Below, one piece after another: positions 6,567-56,835 of a DNA stretch of 64,000 nt. The notes below the pieces were generated by a model. It had not been told where the DNA came from, did not search any database, and was given only the letters and a program-made list of their open reading frames with translations. A program made the position numbers and the translations under genes. Numbering within the stretch: position 1 is the stretch's first letter; each line of letters begins with the position of its first letter. Origin of the DNA: Gammaproteobacteria bacterium (GTDB taxonomy: Bacteria; Pseudomonadota; Gammaproteobacteria; UBA4575); NCBI GenBank assembly GCA_045105615.1, contig JBGCDS010000010.1, forward strand, positions 24,452 to 88,451. The letters run 5' to 3'.

Positions 6567-7817
6567 TTAACTTACTGTATAGAAAATTCTATCCAACATA
6601 AAATGAAAAAAATACGCTTGAGTAGCTGCCGAGCTCTCCAATAGATTTGATTTTGATACACGCAACACTTGAGACTTCACTAGCGCCTCACAACGATAGT
6701 TAGAAAATTGCTTAGACAAAATATTATCAGACAACCACTGTTTTGCATTTATAGTAAAATGCTGACCTTCAGTCACTAACAGAGCCTTCCCTTCTATGAG
6801 ACACAGATACTCATCCAACAATTGCTCATTAAAAATTATATCACCGCTATTAACGGACGAAATTTCTAAGCAATTAGCTAACTCATGAAGTACTTCCAAA
6901 TTACTATCTTCAAATATCTCAAATTTTTTAAGTTGATCTGTATCTAAGTCTTCATAGTTATTTTCATTAGTACTAATTTGATCTGCCACAATTAAAATCT
7001 CAGTCTCAAATTCTGCTGCCGAATTAAATCTATTTTCAGGTTGTTTAGTTAGCGCTTTTACAAGCAATGCTTTCAACGATTCTGGGTGGATGTCTTCTAT
7101 TGCCTCTGGCTCACTGCCAATAATTTTATACAACACGGCGTGTGCATCATCACCAGAGAAAGGCAAATCGCCGACAATCATTTCATATAATAATACGGCT
7201 ACTGAAAATAGATCACTCAATTCATTTGCTAACGTACCATCAATTAATTCTGGCGCCATGTAGGATGGTGTTCCCATTAGCCCCGAATCATCAGCCTCAC
7301 CCGAATTTAATATAGAAATTCCAAAATCTACTACTTTCACCTGCTCATTTTGAGTAATCATTATATTGCTTGGCTTAATATCACGATGAATAATATTTTT
7401 TGTATGCGCGTAATCTAACGCATGACAAATCTGCGCAGCAATATTCAATGCTGTGCTAATAGGCAAAGATTTCTTCCGCTTTAAAAGCGCTAACAAACTC
7501 TCGCCTTGGATATATTCCATGACAATATAGCCTTCATAATCACCAATTCCTGCATCGTATACTGAGACAATATTTTGATGTTGCAATCGTCCAATTGCCT
7601 GCGCTTCAGCATAGAACAAATCATTAGCTACTAAGTCTTCATCTCCACTGGGATCAAACAATTGAATGACTTTTATTGCGACCTTGCGGTCAAGGAATGG
7701 ATCATAAGAACAAAACAAAGTGCGCGTCGGCTGAGTACGCACAGCTTCTTCTAAAGAAAATTTTCCGATGTTTCCAGTAGAAGCTAAACTTCTCCTACGT
7801 TGCCGTCTTTCAAGCAA
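6567..7817 (-). CDS. Hanks-type Ser/Thr protein kinase with C-terminal cyclic-nucleotide-binding-like domain
   Basis: 416 aa. VAIK, HRDIKPSN, DFG, APE motifs. C-terminal ~120 aa resemble a CRP/cNMP-binding beta-barrel (GDIIFNEQ...CLIEGKALLV). Confidence 0.75.
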   Translation of the reverse strand: MLERRQRRRSLASTGNIGKFSLEEAVRTQPTRTLFCSYDPFLDRKVAIKVIQLFDPSGDEDLVANDLFYAEAQAIGRLQHQNIVSVYDAGIGDYEGYIVMEYIQGESLLALLKRKKSLPISTALNIAAQICHALDYAHTKNIIHRDIKPSNIMITQNEQVKVVDFGISILNSGEADDSGLMGTPSYMAPELIDGTLANELSDLFSVAVLLYEMIVGDLPFSGDDAHAVLYKIIGSEPEAIEDIHPESLKALLVKALTKQPENRFNSAAEFETEILIVADQISTNENNYEDLDTDQLKKFEIFEDSNLEVLHELANCLEISSVNSGDIIFNEQLLDEYLCLIEGKALLVTEGQHFTINAKQWLSDNILSKQFSNYRCEALVKSQVLRVSKSNLLESSAATQAYFFHFMLDRIFYTVS

Positions 7818-49342: not shown

Positions 49343-50863
49343 ATGTCTTATCTTGTAGGCGAAATGGGAGCCTACTTATTAGTTGCGGCAATTATTGGAG
49401 TACTAATAGGTTGGTTTTTAAGTCGATGCAAATGCAATAAAGCAATTGCCGAAATTGAATCTCAAAAACAAGCATTAAATACTGAGTTCACTTCTACAAA
49501 GAGCACCCTTGCTTTAAAAGAACAACAATTAACAGATTCTCAACACACTGTTGTTCAATTGCGTAGTGATGTAGCACTTGCCCAAGGTGAAGCCCACCTA
49601 ATGACTTCGCGCTGGAATAGCACGTTAAAACAAGCACGCCAGGCACCTAACCAGTTAAAGTGGATTAAATCTTTACAGACAAAATTAGCCAGCAAAAACA
49701 CACAGCTTTCGCAAAATCGCAAATATGCAGAAGCGAAAGCCTGGGAAGCAAAGGTCACTAAAGAAAATCTTTCTAGGGTTCATAACAGACTCACCCAAGT
49801 TGACGCTAAAGTTGCCAACTTAAAAGATTGGGTTTCGGTTTTCCAGACCAAGCTAATGAAAACAAAAACAGACTATGGCCAGCTGCGTAACTACGCAACT
49901 GCCGCCGCACGAAGTGATCGTGCTTATAAAGACAATTTAACACGTGCGCATAACCGCCTAACTGAGATTGAAGGCAAGCAACAACCTTTACGCACTTGGA
50001 TTCGTGTTTTCCAGACTAAGCTAATGAAAACAAAAGCTGATTACACTCAGTTGCGTAGCTATGCTGATAACATCCAATCATCTTTGAGTGCTAATGAAGA
50101 TAACCTTAATCGCACTCACACAAGATTATCTGAAGTAACAAAAGAGCTTGCACAACTACGTGATCGCAAAAATAATCCTATGCCTCCATTACCACCGGCT
50201 GCAGAAGTTAGCGATAACAAAACATTACGCTTAGTTGATCGCATTCGATTACTCGGCACCTCTAAGAAAGAGGTCTATGGGCGCATGCACAACCAAATTC
50301 GTGAAGCACGCTTAGAAACAATTGAAACAGAACGCGTACTTACCGATAGTTGCGAAGAAAAAGATGCCATCATTAACGGCTTACGTACACAGCTACGTAG
50401 CGCTGAAAATAGAGCCCAAAAAGCCCCTGTTGTTCAATTAGATCAAAGCGTCAGAATCAAAGAACTCGAGTCCGAGGTTGCCAAGTTGAACGCCGGCACT
50501 CACACGCAATCTGAACTTGAAAGTCAGCTGCGCGAGCATCGTTTCACTATTGACGCCTACCGCTCAAAATTGGACACAACAAAAAACCAGCTACTCACTC
50601 AAAGAGTCAACAGCATTGATAATCAGGATGACGCCATCCCTACACTGACGGACTCTGCCAGCGATGATTTAAAACTAATTAAAGGCATCGGTCCAAAATT
50701 AGAAGGCATACTGAATGATCTGGGTGTCTACAAATTCTCTCAAATTGCAGCATGGACACAAAAAGACATTGATGAGATCTCTACTAAACTAGGCAGCTTC
50801 AAAGATAGAATTTCTCGCGATGACTGGGTAAAAAAAGCCCACAAATTAGATAAGAGCAAATAA
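49343..50863 (+). CDS. Membrane-anchored long coiled-coil protein with internal ~56-aa tandem repeats and C-terminal helix-hairpin-helix-like domain
   Basis: 506 aa. N-terminal TM; heptad-rich; C-terminus LIKGIGPKLEGILNDLGVYKFSQIAAWTQKDIDEI. Start 5 bp after the OmpA-family gene. Confidence 0.6.
   Translation: MSYLVGEMGAYLLVAAIIGVLIGWFLSRCKCNKAIAEIESQKQALNTEFTSTKSTLALKEQQLTDSQHTVVQLRSDVALAQGEAHLMTSRWNSTLKQARQAPNQLKWIKSLQTKLASKNTQLSQNRKYAEAKAWEAKVTKENLSRVHNRLTQVDAKVANLKDWVSVFQTKLMKTKTDYGQLRNYATAAARSDRAYKDNLTRAHNRLTEIEGKQQPLRTWIRVFQTKLMKTKADYTQLRSYADNIQSSLSANEDNLNRTHTRLSEVTKELAQLRDRKNNPMPPLPPAAEVSDNKTLRLVDRIRLLGTSKKEVYGRMHNQIREARLETIETERVLTDSCEEKDAIINGLRTQLRSAENRAQKAPVVQLDQSVRIKELESEVAKLNAGTHTQSELESQLREHRFTIDAYRSKLDTTKNQLLTQRVNSIDNQDDAIPTLTDSASDDLKLIKGIGPKLEGILNDLGVYKFSQIAAWTQKDIDEISTKLGSFKDRISRDDWVKKAHKLDKSK
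49763..50149 (+). repeat. Intragenic tandem repeat, period about 168 bp (about 2.3 copies, plus a degenerate partial copy upstream)
   Basis: DNA TTCCAGACCAAGCTAATGAAAACAAAAACAGACTATGGCCAGCTGCGTAACTACGC versus TTCCAGACTAAGCTAATGAAAACAAAAGCTGATTACACTCAGTTGCGTAGCTATGC. Protein ...VFQTKLMKTK(T/A)DY.QLR.YA repeated. Confidence 0.6.
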
Positions 50864-50876
50864 CATTTACTCTTCA

Positions 50877-50912
50877 CTTATTCAGAATTGGAAGCCTCTG
50901 ATTCTGAATAAG
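50877..50912 (+). terminator. Perfect 12-bp inverted repeat (CTTATTCAGAAT...ATTCTGAATAAG) plus T-rich tract. Likely terminator for the coiled-coil gene, overlapping the 3' end of the convergent gene
   Basis: Read directly from the sequence; followed by TATTTTC. Confidence 0.4.
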
Positions 50913-51294
50913 TATTTTCAAATACCTTCACGCCTTTATCATCCAAAATCATACGTGGTGCTGGGTTTATTCTATCGCTAGTCAGTTTCAGCTCATCAGC
51001 AGTCATCGTCATGCGATTACCGCCGGCACTTTCCATCACTAAGCCAGCCGTTCTTTTTTCGGCATCTGTCACTTGCCAACTACCATAGATTGAACCTTGA
51101 CCATCAATCAGCTCAAATTCTCGCGCTTTCACTTTATGTGCATAAACAATTTCTGAACCGCTGTCGACTGAAATAACGTCGTAGATTGAGTAACCCACCA
51201 ATATAATAATTGCGATACGAGTATTACGTTGCAAAATCTCAATGGACTTCATGCGTTCTTCTAAACTTTTATCGTGTTTTGTATTCTCCGACAT
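50878..51294 (-). CDS. Hypothetical N-terminally membrane-anchored periplasmic protein
   Basis: 138 aa. TM IAIIILVGYSIYDVI; no confident domain. Confidence 0.4.
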   Translation of the reverse strand: MSENTKHDKSLEERMKSIEILQRNTRIAIIILVGYSIYDVISVDSGSEIVYAHKVKAREFELIDGQGSIYGSWQVTDAEKRTAGLVMESAGGNRMTMTADELKLTSDRINPAPRMILDDKGVKVFENTYSESEASNSE

Positions 51295-53784: not shown

Positions 53785-54161
53785 CTAAAACTGAATATTG
53801 CGCCAGCATTTTGTCATCGCTTAATTCTCATATAACTCTATAACAATAGGTTACTTACACTTATTCAAGTGTTGTTCTAAAACATTTTCGCGCAATAACA
53901 TATTGTTAAAAAATTTAGGGAACTATCGGCTATATGGTAGTATCCTAGTCTACAGAAGGTAATTTTGAGAACTACATACATATCCTATGGAAGTAATATC
54001 TAGTAAGGTTGAAGAAGGTCTTTCCACGCACGACATTTCGTTATCAGTGTTGTTTGCATTGTGGCTAATTTTAGGACTAGCTACCTACGCATTTGCACTA
54101 TTTACGGTTTGGTTGCCGGAGATAGAAAGACTCACTATTATTTAACAGGCTGGGGAAATAA

Positions 54162-54689
54162 GTGTCGACAGTAATTACCCAAGAACGGCGAGGTTCTGAA
54201 GATCGTCGCATTATGATTGCGACTCCCTTATTCCCGTTTTTTGACTCCGAAGACACGCTAGTCAGACAAGACCGCAGACAGATCCCTGAACGCCGAATAA
54301 ATAACATTACAATAGAAGACACTGTTACTGAGAAAGCGAGTAATAGCAACATTGAAGAAGCGCTAGGCAATAAACGTCTTTTCATTTGGTTTCAAGATGA
54401 AATCCATGAAATAAAGCGCACTAACGATAATGTCTGGATTGGTAGATCTTCAGACTGTTTAGCTACATTCGAATCCCGTTTCGTTTCTCGCAAACATGCG
54501 AGGCTATATTTTGAAGATGGTGCATATTATCTACTTGATAATAGTATCAATGGCACGTACATCAAAAATGACGATGGCGAGACCTTTATAACCAAAGGTA
54601 AAGTCGTGGTAAAAGGTAGCGGAGTCATCAGCCTAGGCGTCCCTCTAGATCACTCAGAAAGTGATCTCATTCACTTCTTCATTGGCTAG
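54162..54689 (+). CDS. FHA-domain protein with Arg-rich N-terminal extension (GTG start with a good RBS)
   Basis: 175 aa. FHA core GRSSDC...VSRKHARL...DNSINGTYI. RBS GGGGAA 5 nt before GTG. Confidence 0.65.
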   Translation: MSTVITQERRGSEDRRIMIATPLFPFFDSEDTLVRQDRRQIPERRINNITIEDTVTEKASNSNIEEALGNKRLFIWFQDEIHEIKRTNDNVWIGRSSDCLATFESRFVSRKHARLYFEDGAYYLLDNSINGTYIKNDDGETFITKGKVVVKGSGVISLGVPLDHSESDLIHFFIG

Positions 54690-54811
54690 ATAATAAACAC
54701 GATAAAATCTGCTTCTAATCACAGCTAAATTTATCGGCTACATCTAACCGTTCTTCGGCTTTTTCTTTTAATGTCAATGCAGTTTATTTCTGCTTAAGAC
54801 ATACTTCGCGT

Positions 54812-55435
54812 ATGTCACAAAAACAATTCAAATCAGACGACAAGCCTGCTGAACGCCGGAAATGGGGAAAACGACCAAGCTATCCATTTGTTGATAGCCG
54901 AGGTGTGCTTGTTACCAAAAATCGACGCCTTGCAATCGATGTACGCGATGATGCAGATGAGCAAGAAAGCAACGGCCAGATGTCAGGTCGCCGTGCAAGC
55001 GATCGAGAAGCGCTAGATAATTCCGATACAGCGCCGGAGTTACCTGCAATTCTACGAGATAATGATTTAACGAACGCTGGCATACCCACATTAGAAACAG
55101 CGGCGTCTCTAGCGCAAAGCATGGAACTAGTCTTCCAAAAGTGGCGTATCAACCTATCAGCACAGGAACCACGCTGCAGTTTAGGACGAGATCAAAATTG
55201 CGATTTAGTTCTACTTAATAGATTCTCCTCTCGTCGCCATGGGCGCTTAGAATGGCGCAATGGTCAGTTCTATTTCTGCGACCATAGCTTCAATGGCACT
55301 TATATAGATTTCGATGATGGTCGCACGACCCATATTTGTCGTGACGAAAGCGTGCTTAGCGGTTCAGGTACTATCAGCTTAGGAAAACCCTCTAATATTG
55401 ATCAAGAATTCGTTATCCGTTTTAAAATTAGTTAA
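54812..55435 (+). CDS. FHA-domain protein, paralog of the preceding gene
   Basis: 207 aa. FHA core GRDQNCD...SRRHGRL...DHSFNGTYI. Shares the N-terminal ERR...PF.DS...LV...RR motif with the upstream gene. Confidence 0.65.
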   Translation: MSQKQFKSDDKPAERRKWGKRPSYPFVDSRGVLVTKNRRLAIDVRDDADEQESNGQMSGRRASDREALDNSDTAPELPAILRDNDLTNAGIPTLETAASLAQSMELVFQKWRINLSAQEPRCSLGRDQNCDLVLLNRFSSRRHGRLEWRNGQFYFCDHSFNGTYIDFDDGRTTHICRDESVLSGSGTISLGKPSNIDQEFVIRFKIS

Positions 55436-55749
55436 ACACTTGTCTACTTAACCACTTTTATCTCAAAACGGTGATTTGTTTATATAACTGCCGACCTCAA
55501 CACCAAATTCTGAATACAAATAAAGTATTATTAATATTCCGAGTTAGTCATCTCTCAATACCCACTCTTATTGCAAAACTGCGCTTAGTTCACATTTAGA
55601 GAAGGAACTCTGCTGATTTCGACTTTCCACCTACCGTTTATTCGCTAAATTATGACGTTCATCACGGGCAGGCACTGAATAGACCAATAGTATAGTCACC
55701 AACAGATTCAGAGAAACTACGCTCTTAACAGAGCCTAACCTTGAAGTGA

Positions 55750-56835
55750 ATGACTATGCGACGTAAACAACTAATAGATACAACCCATAAAATCCAACAG
55801 GCCATTTCTGATAGCGAACTGCTTGAGCGATTGCATGTGCGCATTCTTGCATTAAGCAAACAGGGTAAAAAAGTGCCTAATGTTGGCGACCTTTTAGCAG
55901 CACTAAATAAATTTTCAATATCGACAAGCAAACTCTCAGATGCTGAAAAAGAAGTGCTTAAACAGCTAGATCTACATTACTTGAATGATCCAAAAAATTG
56001 GCCTAAGTTGATTTCAACCGACCAACCAGAGTTACTTAAAAGTATATTTAGCAATCTACGCAGACTTCGATCCAGCCTAGGTTACTTCCAAAAAGTAATT
56101 TCAATTGGTCACGACGAGCTTAACGATATAAACAGCAATGATGAGACACTTTCTATTTTATTGTTAGCTGACGAGAATACTAAAGATACTCCAAAGAAAA
56201 TTGCATCAACCTTAGAAAGCATACAGCAACTATACAACTGCTTTGTCACTCTTGAGCATATTGATAACCCTCAAGATCTTACCATTATCGGCATGGACTC
56301 AGGCAATGAGAAATCAATCGAATTGACTGGCGAAAGCATAGTTCTAGAAAAGATGAAGGAGCTTTTATATGGCGTATGGATGCAAGTACTTCCTTCACAC
56401 AATCAATATTTAAGTGAACAACTTAAGTTGATCTTAAAATCATTACCAATACTTGAAAGAATCGAAGAGTTAGCAACTACCGGTCAAATCGAAAAAGAGA
56501 AAGCTGCATTAGCCAAGCGTCAACTAACAACTAGCCTGGAAGATTTAATTAGATCAAACACTATCATTGAAGAAATGTATGATCATTGGCAGCAAGACCC
56601 ACGTGTTGCAATGCAATTAACACCTCGCTTAACGACACAACAAGAAAAGTCAATTACCTCTGAGGAAGCGCCAGAATTTGCAACTCAGCAACGCACTAAC
56701 CCTTTTATGAAGAACGAAGAAAATGAGCTAATTGCAACTACCAATGCAAAAACGGCCGCCCAGAAAGTTACCAGTTTAAATGATGGTAACAAGCTAAGAT
56801 TCATTCAGTCTAAAAAAGCAGAGGCCAGCGAGTAA
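55750..56835 (+). CDS. Hypothetical all-alpha protein, no recognisable domain
   Basis: 361 aa ORF with uniform coding character; no family assigned. Confidence 0.45.
   Translation: MTMRRKQLIDTTHKIQQAISDSELLERLHVRILALSKQGKKVPNVGDLLAALNKFSISTSKLSDAEKEVLKQLDLHYLNDPKNWPKLISTDQPELLKSIFSNLRRLRSSLGYFQKVISIGHDELNDINSNDETLSILLLADENTKDTPKKIASTLESIQQLYNCFVTLEHIDNPQDLTIIGMDSGNEKSIELTGESIVLEKMKELLYGVWMQVLPSHNQYLSEQLKLILKSLPILERIEELATTGQIEKEKAALAKRQLTTSLEDLIRSNTIIEEMYDHWQQDPRVAMQLTPRLTTQQEKSITSEEAPEFATQQRTNPFMKNEENELIATTNAKTAAQKVTSLNDGNKLRFIQSKKAEASE

Follow-up and report, generated by a model that had tools for sequence, protein, structure and literature searches.

Tandem FHA-domain proteins with a shared arginine-rich N-terminal block in an uncultured marine gammaproteobacterial lineage: a candidate ligand-gated phospho-threonine adaptor pair

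The closest described counterparts of the proteins reported here are the actinobacterial GarA (Rv1827) and OdhI, proteins of 140-200 amino acids in which a disordered N-terminal regulatory extension precedes a single C-terminal FHA domain. A precedent for the coupling of FHA phospho-signalling to cyclic di-GMP (c-di-GMP) is the Bdellovibrio protein DgcB (FHA-GGDEF), which makes this messenger by means of its GGDEF domain. On the receiving side, the CSP1 peptide of CleD binds the dimer (c-di-GMP)2 via a hairpin-DRR-x11-[R/K]RxxD motif, is unfolded without its ligand and carries a net charge of +5 (PMC7382256). Here we analyse a stretch of 64,000 nucleotides (the window) from an uncultured gammaproteobacterium of the GTDB lineage UBA4575 (assembly GCA_045105615.1, contig JBGCDS010000010.1, positions 24,452 to 88,451), in which two tandem genes, termed FHA1 and FHA2, encode FHA-domain proteins sharing an arginine-rich N-terminal block, preceded by a gene for a membrane micro-protein, sORF52. 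We tentatively propose that the two proteins constitute a ligand-gated phospho-threonine adaptor pair. FHA adaptors being known, the novelty lies in the extension, a module of about 40 residues which is unannotated and widespread.

FHA1 (positions 54162-54689 of the window, + strand) starts with GTG and encodes 175 amino acids, comprising the arginine-rich block, an acidic linker and an FHA domain (Pfam PF00498, E = 1.8e-11; 44.8 bits). FHA2 (54812-55435, + strand) encodes 207 amino acids, with a partly degenerate block, a long acidic linker containing a conserved DTAPELP motif, and an FHA domain (E = 8.7e-10; 39.3 bits). Both scores exceed the Pfam gathering cutoff of 20.7, and an earlier reading of the DNA from its letters alone (the sequence-only reading) was thus right in calling two FHA-domain genes, as it was in placing these two open reading frames (ORFs) and a third one, at 55750-56835. 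It was also right in regarding the two proteins as paralogues: they are 30% identical (E = 2e-21), in an alignment that starts within the N-terminal block. No transmembrane segment was found in either FHA1 or FHA2. The residues expected to bind phospho-threonine, namely G94, R95, S109, R110, H112, N130, G131 and T132, are invariant or conserved in at least 90% of 116 sequences of both paralogues, and occupy the Gly-Arg position of the beta3-4 loop, the Ser-x-x-His position of the beta4-5 loop and the Asn-Gly position of the beta6-7 loop. In the AlphaFold model, residues 70-175 of FHA1 form 10 strands with a predicted local distance difference test score (pLDDT) of about 90. The best Foldseek match of this model is the FHA-1 domain of Rv1747 (E = 5.6e-8; template modelling score 0.82), followed by ArnA, GarA, OdhI and others; 95 matches in the PDB at E <= 1e-3 include FHA structures bound to a phospho-threonine peptide, as well as the DgcB FHA domain with its phosphorylated N-terminal peptide (6hc1). 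The closest solved sequences are GarA and OdhI. Both FHA domains are functional-looking as phospho-threonine readers, and binding of this residue is predicted from their sequences and models. In the close clade, FHA2 further displays near-invariant C122, C130, C156, H158, H174 and C176 (CxH-x15-HxC) within residues 122-176; this set, which neither FHA1 nor the distant FHA2 orthologues have, may constitute a metal or redox site. A single metagenome-assembled genome (MAG; locus L012, 8001-8522) carries a chimeric gene in which the FHA1 N-terminus and FHA core are joined to the FHA2 C-terminus at NGTYI, with an in-frame TAG; either the paralogues have recombined or the gene is an artefact of co-assembly.

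The block spans residues 8-48 of FHA1 (54183-54305, + strand), where it reads ERR-x3-DRR ... PLFPFFDSEDTLV ... DRR-x4-ERR-INN and contains four RR pairs, and residues 13-45 of FHA2 (54848-54946, + strand), where it reads ERRKWGKRPSYPFVDSRGVLVTKNRR....R and has two full RR pairs left in the clade of the window. Distant FHA2 orthologues keep the four RR pairs, as exemplified by that of locus L014 (ERRKHERRKWGRKVTYPFIDSDGVLVTKNRRRLVDRR). The general form of the block is [DE]RR-x3-[DE]RR...ΦPFxDxxGxLV...[DE]RR-x3-4-[DE]RR, and the core common to both paralogue families is [DE]RR-x5-P-x-[FY]P[FL][FV]D[SN]-x2-[TV]LV-x3-RR, with R15, R16, P25, D28, L33, V34, R38 and R39 invariant in both. When the N-terminal 50 and 46 residues were aligned alone, they reached a local BLOSUM62 score of 50, as compared to 21.3 +/- 4.2 for 5000 shuffles; since only 1 of these shuffles reached the observed score, the similarity is not compositional, and the shared N-terminal block claimed by the sequence-only reading stands. 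The block holds 8-9 arginines in about 37 residues and about 2.7 aromatic residues; an acidic residue ([DE]) precedes 89-95% of the RR pairs, and the net charge is +3 to +5. AlphaFold models it at a pLDDT of 50-60, with a hint of a hairpin and of two short helices at the DRR motifs. Position T32 is near-invariant in the FHA1 family and is V, T, E, N or I elsewhere, and in many block members the serine of the 'DS' pair gives way to G, C, A, R, K, D, Q or Y.

A 45-position profile of the block, searched against 1.84 billion representative proteins at E <= 1e-3, matched 272 representative clusters. Among the best 147 new matches, 105 were short stand-alone proteins, 10 carried an N-terminal transmembrane helix, and about 28 were FHA fusions, four of which have two tandem blocks; one further protein has two blocks without FHA, and no fusion partner other than FHA was detected. 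The majority of the best matches inspected are thus proteins of 50-100 amino acids that stand alone. No Pfam or NCBIfam model matched the block proteins, and a PDB sequence search with the block profile returned nothing. In the literature we found no description of the motif, and for the combination of FHA, c-di-GMP and arginine-rich, nothing beyond the CleD papers. The block was recovered independently from metagenomes with a hand-made degenerate DNA pattern covering the hairpin and the RR pairs: out of 71 metagenome loci, the motif lay in an ORF at 58, and 55 of these 58 ORFs were 50-113 amino acids long. A phage origin was considered and rejected, only one viral contig having been found with the DNA pattern. 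The block is therefore an autonomous mini-domain without a Pfam or NCBIfam entry, whose globular fusions are exclusively with FHA among the best matches inspected. Two further sightings may be recorded. At L038 (5797-5979), L039 and L040, a stand-alone block protein resides in a prophage-like region, with a KilA-N/Bro-N gene on one side and phage tail genes on the other; no other occurrence on a viral contig was found. At L112, a 59-amino-acid ORF (6924-7103, - strand) that is rich in ERR/DRR repeats and devoid of the hairpin is found at a distance of about 900 bp from an FHA gene with two blocks, which suggests a wider population of [DE]RR-repeat micro-proteins.

Outside the lineage of the window, the block often keeps company with signalling genes of the histidine-kinase or partner-switching type. 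In a Pfam census of 136 neighbouring ORFs, HATPase_c, Response_reg, GAF, PAS, CheW, HATPase_c_2 and SpoIIE lead, and the recurrent neighbours are receiver-PP2C-HATPase_c_2 proteins, CheA-like hybrids, GAF-PAS histidine kinases, and receiver-HATPase_c_2 proteins with a PAS kinase. In Chromatiales MAGs, the gene for a 98-amino-acid block protein lies 26 bp upstream of that for a 361-amino-acid FHA protein whose C-terminal FHA domain is of the FHA1 subtype (36% identity; E = 2e-17), in an operon with receiver/Hpt genes on one side and MotA/MotB and an HDOD gene on the other. Because they are fused in one lineage and encoded by adjacent genes in Chromatiales, the block and the FHA domain appear to act together.

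FHA1 and FHA2 fit none of the GarA/OdhI, FipA and TagH families. With GarA and OdhI they share the layout, and both of these are among the fold matches of the FHA1 model; they differ in that they come from another phylum, occur as a tandem pair with a membrane micro-protein, and have as their extension a module that is also found without FHA. Membership of the GarA/OdhI family (NF041660) was rejected, since the scores of 16.7 and 19.1 bits fall far below the cutoff of 200 and there is no ETTS phospho-acceptor motif. The best NCBIfam matches to the FHA portion are FhaB/FipA (Rv0019c), FipA being a small membrane-associated FHA protein, and TagH; here too membership fails, at 30-38 bits against cutoffs of 120-125 (30-33 bits against 120 for TagH of the type VI secretion system (T6SS), TIGR03354), with no T6SS or cell-division genes nearby and an unrelated N-terminus. 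Unlike DgcB, FHA1 and FHA2 have no catalytic domain, so any link to c-di-GMP would be as receivers.

For the block itself, the nearest analogue is CleD's Arg-rich C-terminal region (Hee et al. 2020, PMC7382256), in which, likewise, DRR comes after a beta-hairpin and leads, through a loop with Pro as its last residue, to RR-x-x-D/N, with acidic residues beside the Arg pairs, aromatics, a net charge of about +5 and an unfolded apo form (suggested, for the block, by its low pLDDT). In both cases the element is appended to a signalling domain, CheY-like in CleD and FHA in the block proteins. CleD differs in its loop from DRR to RR, of 11 residues versus 3-4 in the block, and the block has an additional N-terminal [DE]RR-x3-[DE]RR. 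No sequence homology between the two is detectable; with the hairpin, DRR and RR-x-x-[N/D] present and a spacer of x3-4 in place of x11, the block was not assigned to the CleD motif class, the likeness being one of ingredients only. As for PilZ receptors, they too show an RR-x-x-x-R-like stretch followed by a D-S-x-G strand, and comprise single-domain adaptors encoded near chemotaxis and two-component genes. PilZ membership was rejected: there is no match at E <= 1, about 6 residues separate DSxG from the Arg motif as against 20-30 in PilZ, DSxG is not D/NxSxxG, and some 40 residues are too short for a beta-barrel. The resemblance to nucleotide-binding motifs of the c-di-GMP RxxxR type, put forward by the sequence-only reading, is thus a reasonable analogy as far as the acidic residue before the RR pairs is concerned, as in CleD, and does not hold for PilZ, whose RxxxR/DxSxxG spacing does not fit.

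We searched 28 species-representative loci (GTDB species) by tblastn with the window proteins. The gene order sORF52, FHA1, FHA2 is conserved in 26 of the 28, on every contig of sufficient length FHA2 comes after FHA1, even where FHA1 identity is as low as 43%, and in nearly all cases the pair adjoins hslR-CxxCxxCC-htpG, hslR being on the opposite strand. The genes flanking the cassette are ispG, YjbQ, HAD, hslR and htpG, and the GC content of the locus matches that of its flanks. Homologues fall into 66 clusters for FHA1, 52 for FHA2 (plus one FHA-adenylate cyclase outlier) and 17 for the 361-amino-acid protein, and for all three the sources are uncultured marine Gammaproteobacteria, some labelled 'Thiotrichales'. 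As it is kept in 26 of 28 species loci beside hslR-htpG, the cassette formed by sORF52, FHA1 and FHA2 is, on this sequence evidence, a stable and vertically inherited one in an uncultured marine gammaproteobacterial lineage. This synteny and inheritance contradict the idea of an accessory module, and the locus is not outside its expected syntenic context, as had been claimed, given the same arrangement in at least 25 species-level genomes and the matching GC content.

The first member of the cassette, sORF52 (53987-54145, + strand), encodes a 52-amino-acid single-pass membrane peptide and ends, with its stop codon, 16 nt short of the start of FHA1. It is often uncalled as a gene (it is called in L002), yet it is more conserved than either FHA gene: the protein is 90-100% identical where FHA1 identity is 71-88%, and most of the nucleotide changes affect the third position of a codon. 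The conserved element T.TGGTAGTATC (TGGTAGTAT; 53933-53944, + strand), located upstream of its ATG at a distance of about 45 nt, is near-invariant in 9 species and is, from its sequence, likely an extended -10 promoter for the cassette. The earlier description of the intergenic regions as long and promoter-like calls for correction: the gap before FHA1 holds this conserved 52-amino-acid ORF, and a scan of the intergenic regions for promoter and terminator consensus sites gave no enrichment over shuffles.

It was correctly noted that no kinase, T6SS or secretion gene lies nearby: there is none within about 10 kb. The only Hanks-type Ser/Thr kinase gene of the window (6567-7817, - strand; Pkinase, E = 9.4e-49) is 46 kb from the FHA pair; it is flanked by genes for a Lon substrate-binding-domain protein and a Mur ligase, and is the sole candidate source of a phospho-threonine ligand in the window.

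The reading that we favour, while holding it tentatively, is that FHA1 and FHA2 act as a ligand-gated phospho-threonine adaptor pair; it builds on the observed architecture, conservation, cassette composition, module autonomy and exclusive FHA fusion. Each adaptor consists of an N-terminal mini-domain with [DE]RR pairs flanking a short beta-hairpin (ΦPFxDxxGxLV), an acidic disordered linker and a canonical phospho-threonine FHA domain. The block would be unfolded when alone and would acquire its fold by enclosing a small anion that has guanine-type bases, the most plausible candidates being c-di-GMP and related nucleotide second messengers. With four bases in an intercalated dimer of the kind that the CleD peptide binds, the four [DE]RR triads might be their counterparts. 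Once bound, the ligand may determine the FHA domain's choice of phospho-threonine partners, or the place where they are engaged, which is probably the membrane, with a presumed participation of sORF52. FHA1, with the full motif, would be the sensor, and FHA2, with its partly degenerate one, a diverged partner. A broader proposition, which we consider more doubtful, is that the block is a new and widespread minimal receptor for nucleotide second messengers (c-di-GMP or another cyclic di- or oligonucleotide), acting by itself as a micro-receptor in numerous Proteobacteria of sediments and the sea, and that its fusion with FHA couples the messenger to Ser/Thr phosphorylation.

Several observations weigh against the reading as a ligand-gated adaptor pair. 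The spacer of the block (DRR-x4-RR-xx-N/D) departs from that of CleD (DRR-x11-[R/K]RxxD), in whose peptide single-residue loop deletions weaken binding (PMC7382256), and the PilZ motifs do not fit either. FHA2 of the window's clade has lost half of its RR pairs. GGDEF and EAL domains are not enriched near the stand-alone block proteins, where they are not among the top families of the 136 neighbours and about 4 loci have one in reach; none of the GGDEF, EAL or HD-GYP motifs was seen in about 448 kb from the FHA-cassette lineage, most of it one syntenic region, and both results say little for or against a c-di-GMP context. The Hanks-type kinase gene lies far off, at the above-mentioned 46 kb, and no phosphatase or substrate was identified.

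The same features invite other explanations. The block could be a protein docking or auto-regulatory peptide, binding in cis or in trans to the FHA domain, as in GarA and OdhI, or docking on histidine kinases, on receiver-PP2C-kinase modules or on sORF52, with the FHA proteins as scaffolds. The layout, in which the FHA domain of a small protein sits at the C-terminus behind a disordered extension, agrees with this, as do GarA and OdhI being the closest solved sequences, the weak NCBIfam matches to OdhI, FHA as the sole fusion partner, the adjacent block and FHA genes of Chromatiales, the frequent signalling neighbours, and the near-invariance of T32 in the FHA1 family. Yet the block family as a whole has no conserved Thr or Ser, which rules out a GarA-like pseudo-substrate as a general explanation, an ETTS-type motif is absent, most block members stand alone with no FHA gene nearby, and neighbours as heterogeneous as those observed fit a common ligand better than a common protein partner; on balance docking seems to us somewhat improbable. 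A polyanion binder is another candidate, be it an Arg-rich RNA-binding hairpin (BIV Tat, lambda N-like) or a polyphosphate or acidic-phospholipid anchor, by which phosphoproteins bound to FHA would be tethered to the inner membrane, to ribosomes or to RNA. For such a binder speak the 8-9 arginines combined with a beta-hairpin, the N-terminal transmembrane helix directly before the block in some members, the membrane micro-protein of the cassette, and the constant proximity of the FHA pair to hslR, the gene for the S4-type RNA-binding protein Hsp15. We judge it unlikely, in that an acidic residue before nearly every RR pair and a net charge of +3 to +5 are atypical of non-specific polyanion binders, the adjacency to hslR, on the opposite strand, may be plain synteny, and the locus has no conserved RNA element or Rfam match.

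A chance likeness of the N-termini of two unrelated FHA genes, due to low complexity or composition, within an arbitrary gene neighbourhood is highly improbable. The region is indeed Arg-rich and poorly predicted by AlphaFold, and the 361-amino-acid gene shows no co-occurrence outside one clade, but the shuffles almost never match the observed score, more than 100 sequences share the ordered, invariant columns, searching with the profile retrieves hundreds of proteins whose motif has this order, and the tandem pair is kept in about 26 species. For the pair and the motif, coincidence is refuted; it holds for the membership of the third gene only.

This third gene, unk361 (55750-56835, + strand), encodes a 361-amino-acid clade-restricted protein of unknown function and adjoins the cassette, outside its conserved core. 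As the sequence-only reading had it, the protein has no recognisable domain, with no Pfam, NCBIfam or PADLOC match; Foldseek gave no fold match below E = 0.02, and the AlphaFold model has a mean pLDDT of 54, its confidence being low except for residues 131-282. It shows no homology to the N-terminal part of the 361-amino-acid FHA protein of Chromatiales. Within its clade unk361 is more conserved than the FHA genes, the full-length members (16 of its 17 clusters) being all at least 61% identical, and it has no relatives outside that clade. The tblastn survey of the species loci bore out the co-occurrence of the FHA pair and not that of unk361, which is present in the closest clade only (L004-L012) and absent from L013 and from the more distant loci (L014-L030); a three-gene unit of FHA1, FHA2 and unk361 is thus not supported, and unk361 is linked to the FHA pair only by being adjacent to it in one clade. 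What follows FHA2 varies, because distant relatives carry extra genes where the window's clade has unk361; in L014 (9701-10411, - strand) and distant relatives, one of the genes between FHA2 and hslR appears, by inspection, to encode a transposase-like protein associated with repetitive extragenic palindromes (REP), of the IS200 type. Directly upstream of unk361, a highly conserved non-coding region of about 160 nt (55590-55749, + strand), near-invariant in 8 species, is taken to be the gene's own promoter and 5' leader. It includes a hairpin (GCTCT-loop-AGAGC, at about 55721-55736) with a variable loop, weak RNAalifold support and no Rfam match.

Elsewhere around the cassette, two conserved genes without a Pfam family, at 49343-50863 (+ strand; 506 amino acids) and 50878-51294 (- strand; 138 amino acids), are syntenic with it in the close clade. 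The 506-amino-acid protein had weak PADLOC matches of coiled-coil type only (RmuC/JetC-like, E about 1e-3). An anti-phage defence system was considered and rejected, as PADLOC gave no match for sORF52, FHA1, FHA2 or unk361. The locus had no Rfam match at E <= 1, and the whole window contains only two tRNAs.

If the block does bind a second messenger, it would represent a new minimal receptor class, which might be used as a biosensor or as a sequestering tag like the CleD peptide, and FHA1 and FHA2 would wire nucleotide signalling directly to phospho-threonine signalling. To our knowledge, such a coupling has not been described for FHA adaptors. In that case many small ORFs of environmental genomes, so far unannotated, would gain a function as well. 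Even if no such ligand is bound, the locus provides a compact and tractable three-gene cassette, made of a membrane micro-protein and two adaptors, which is core to an uncultured marine lineage and carries a block that makes up hundreds of micro-protein families.

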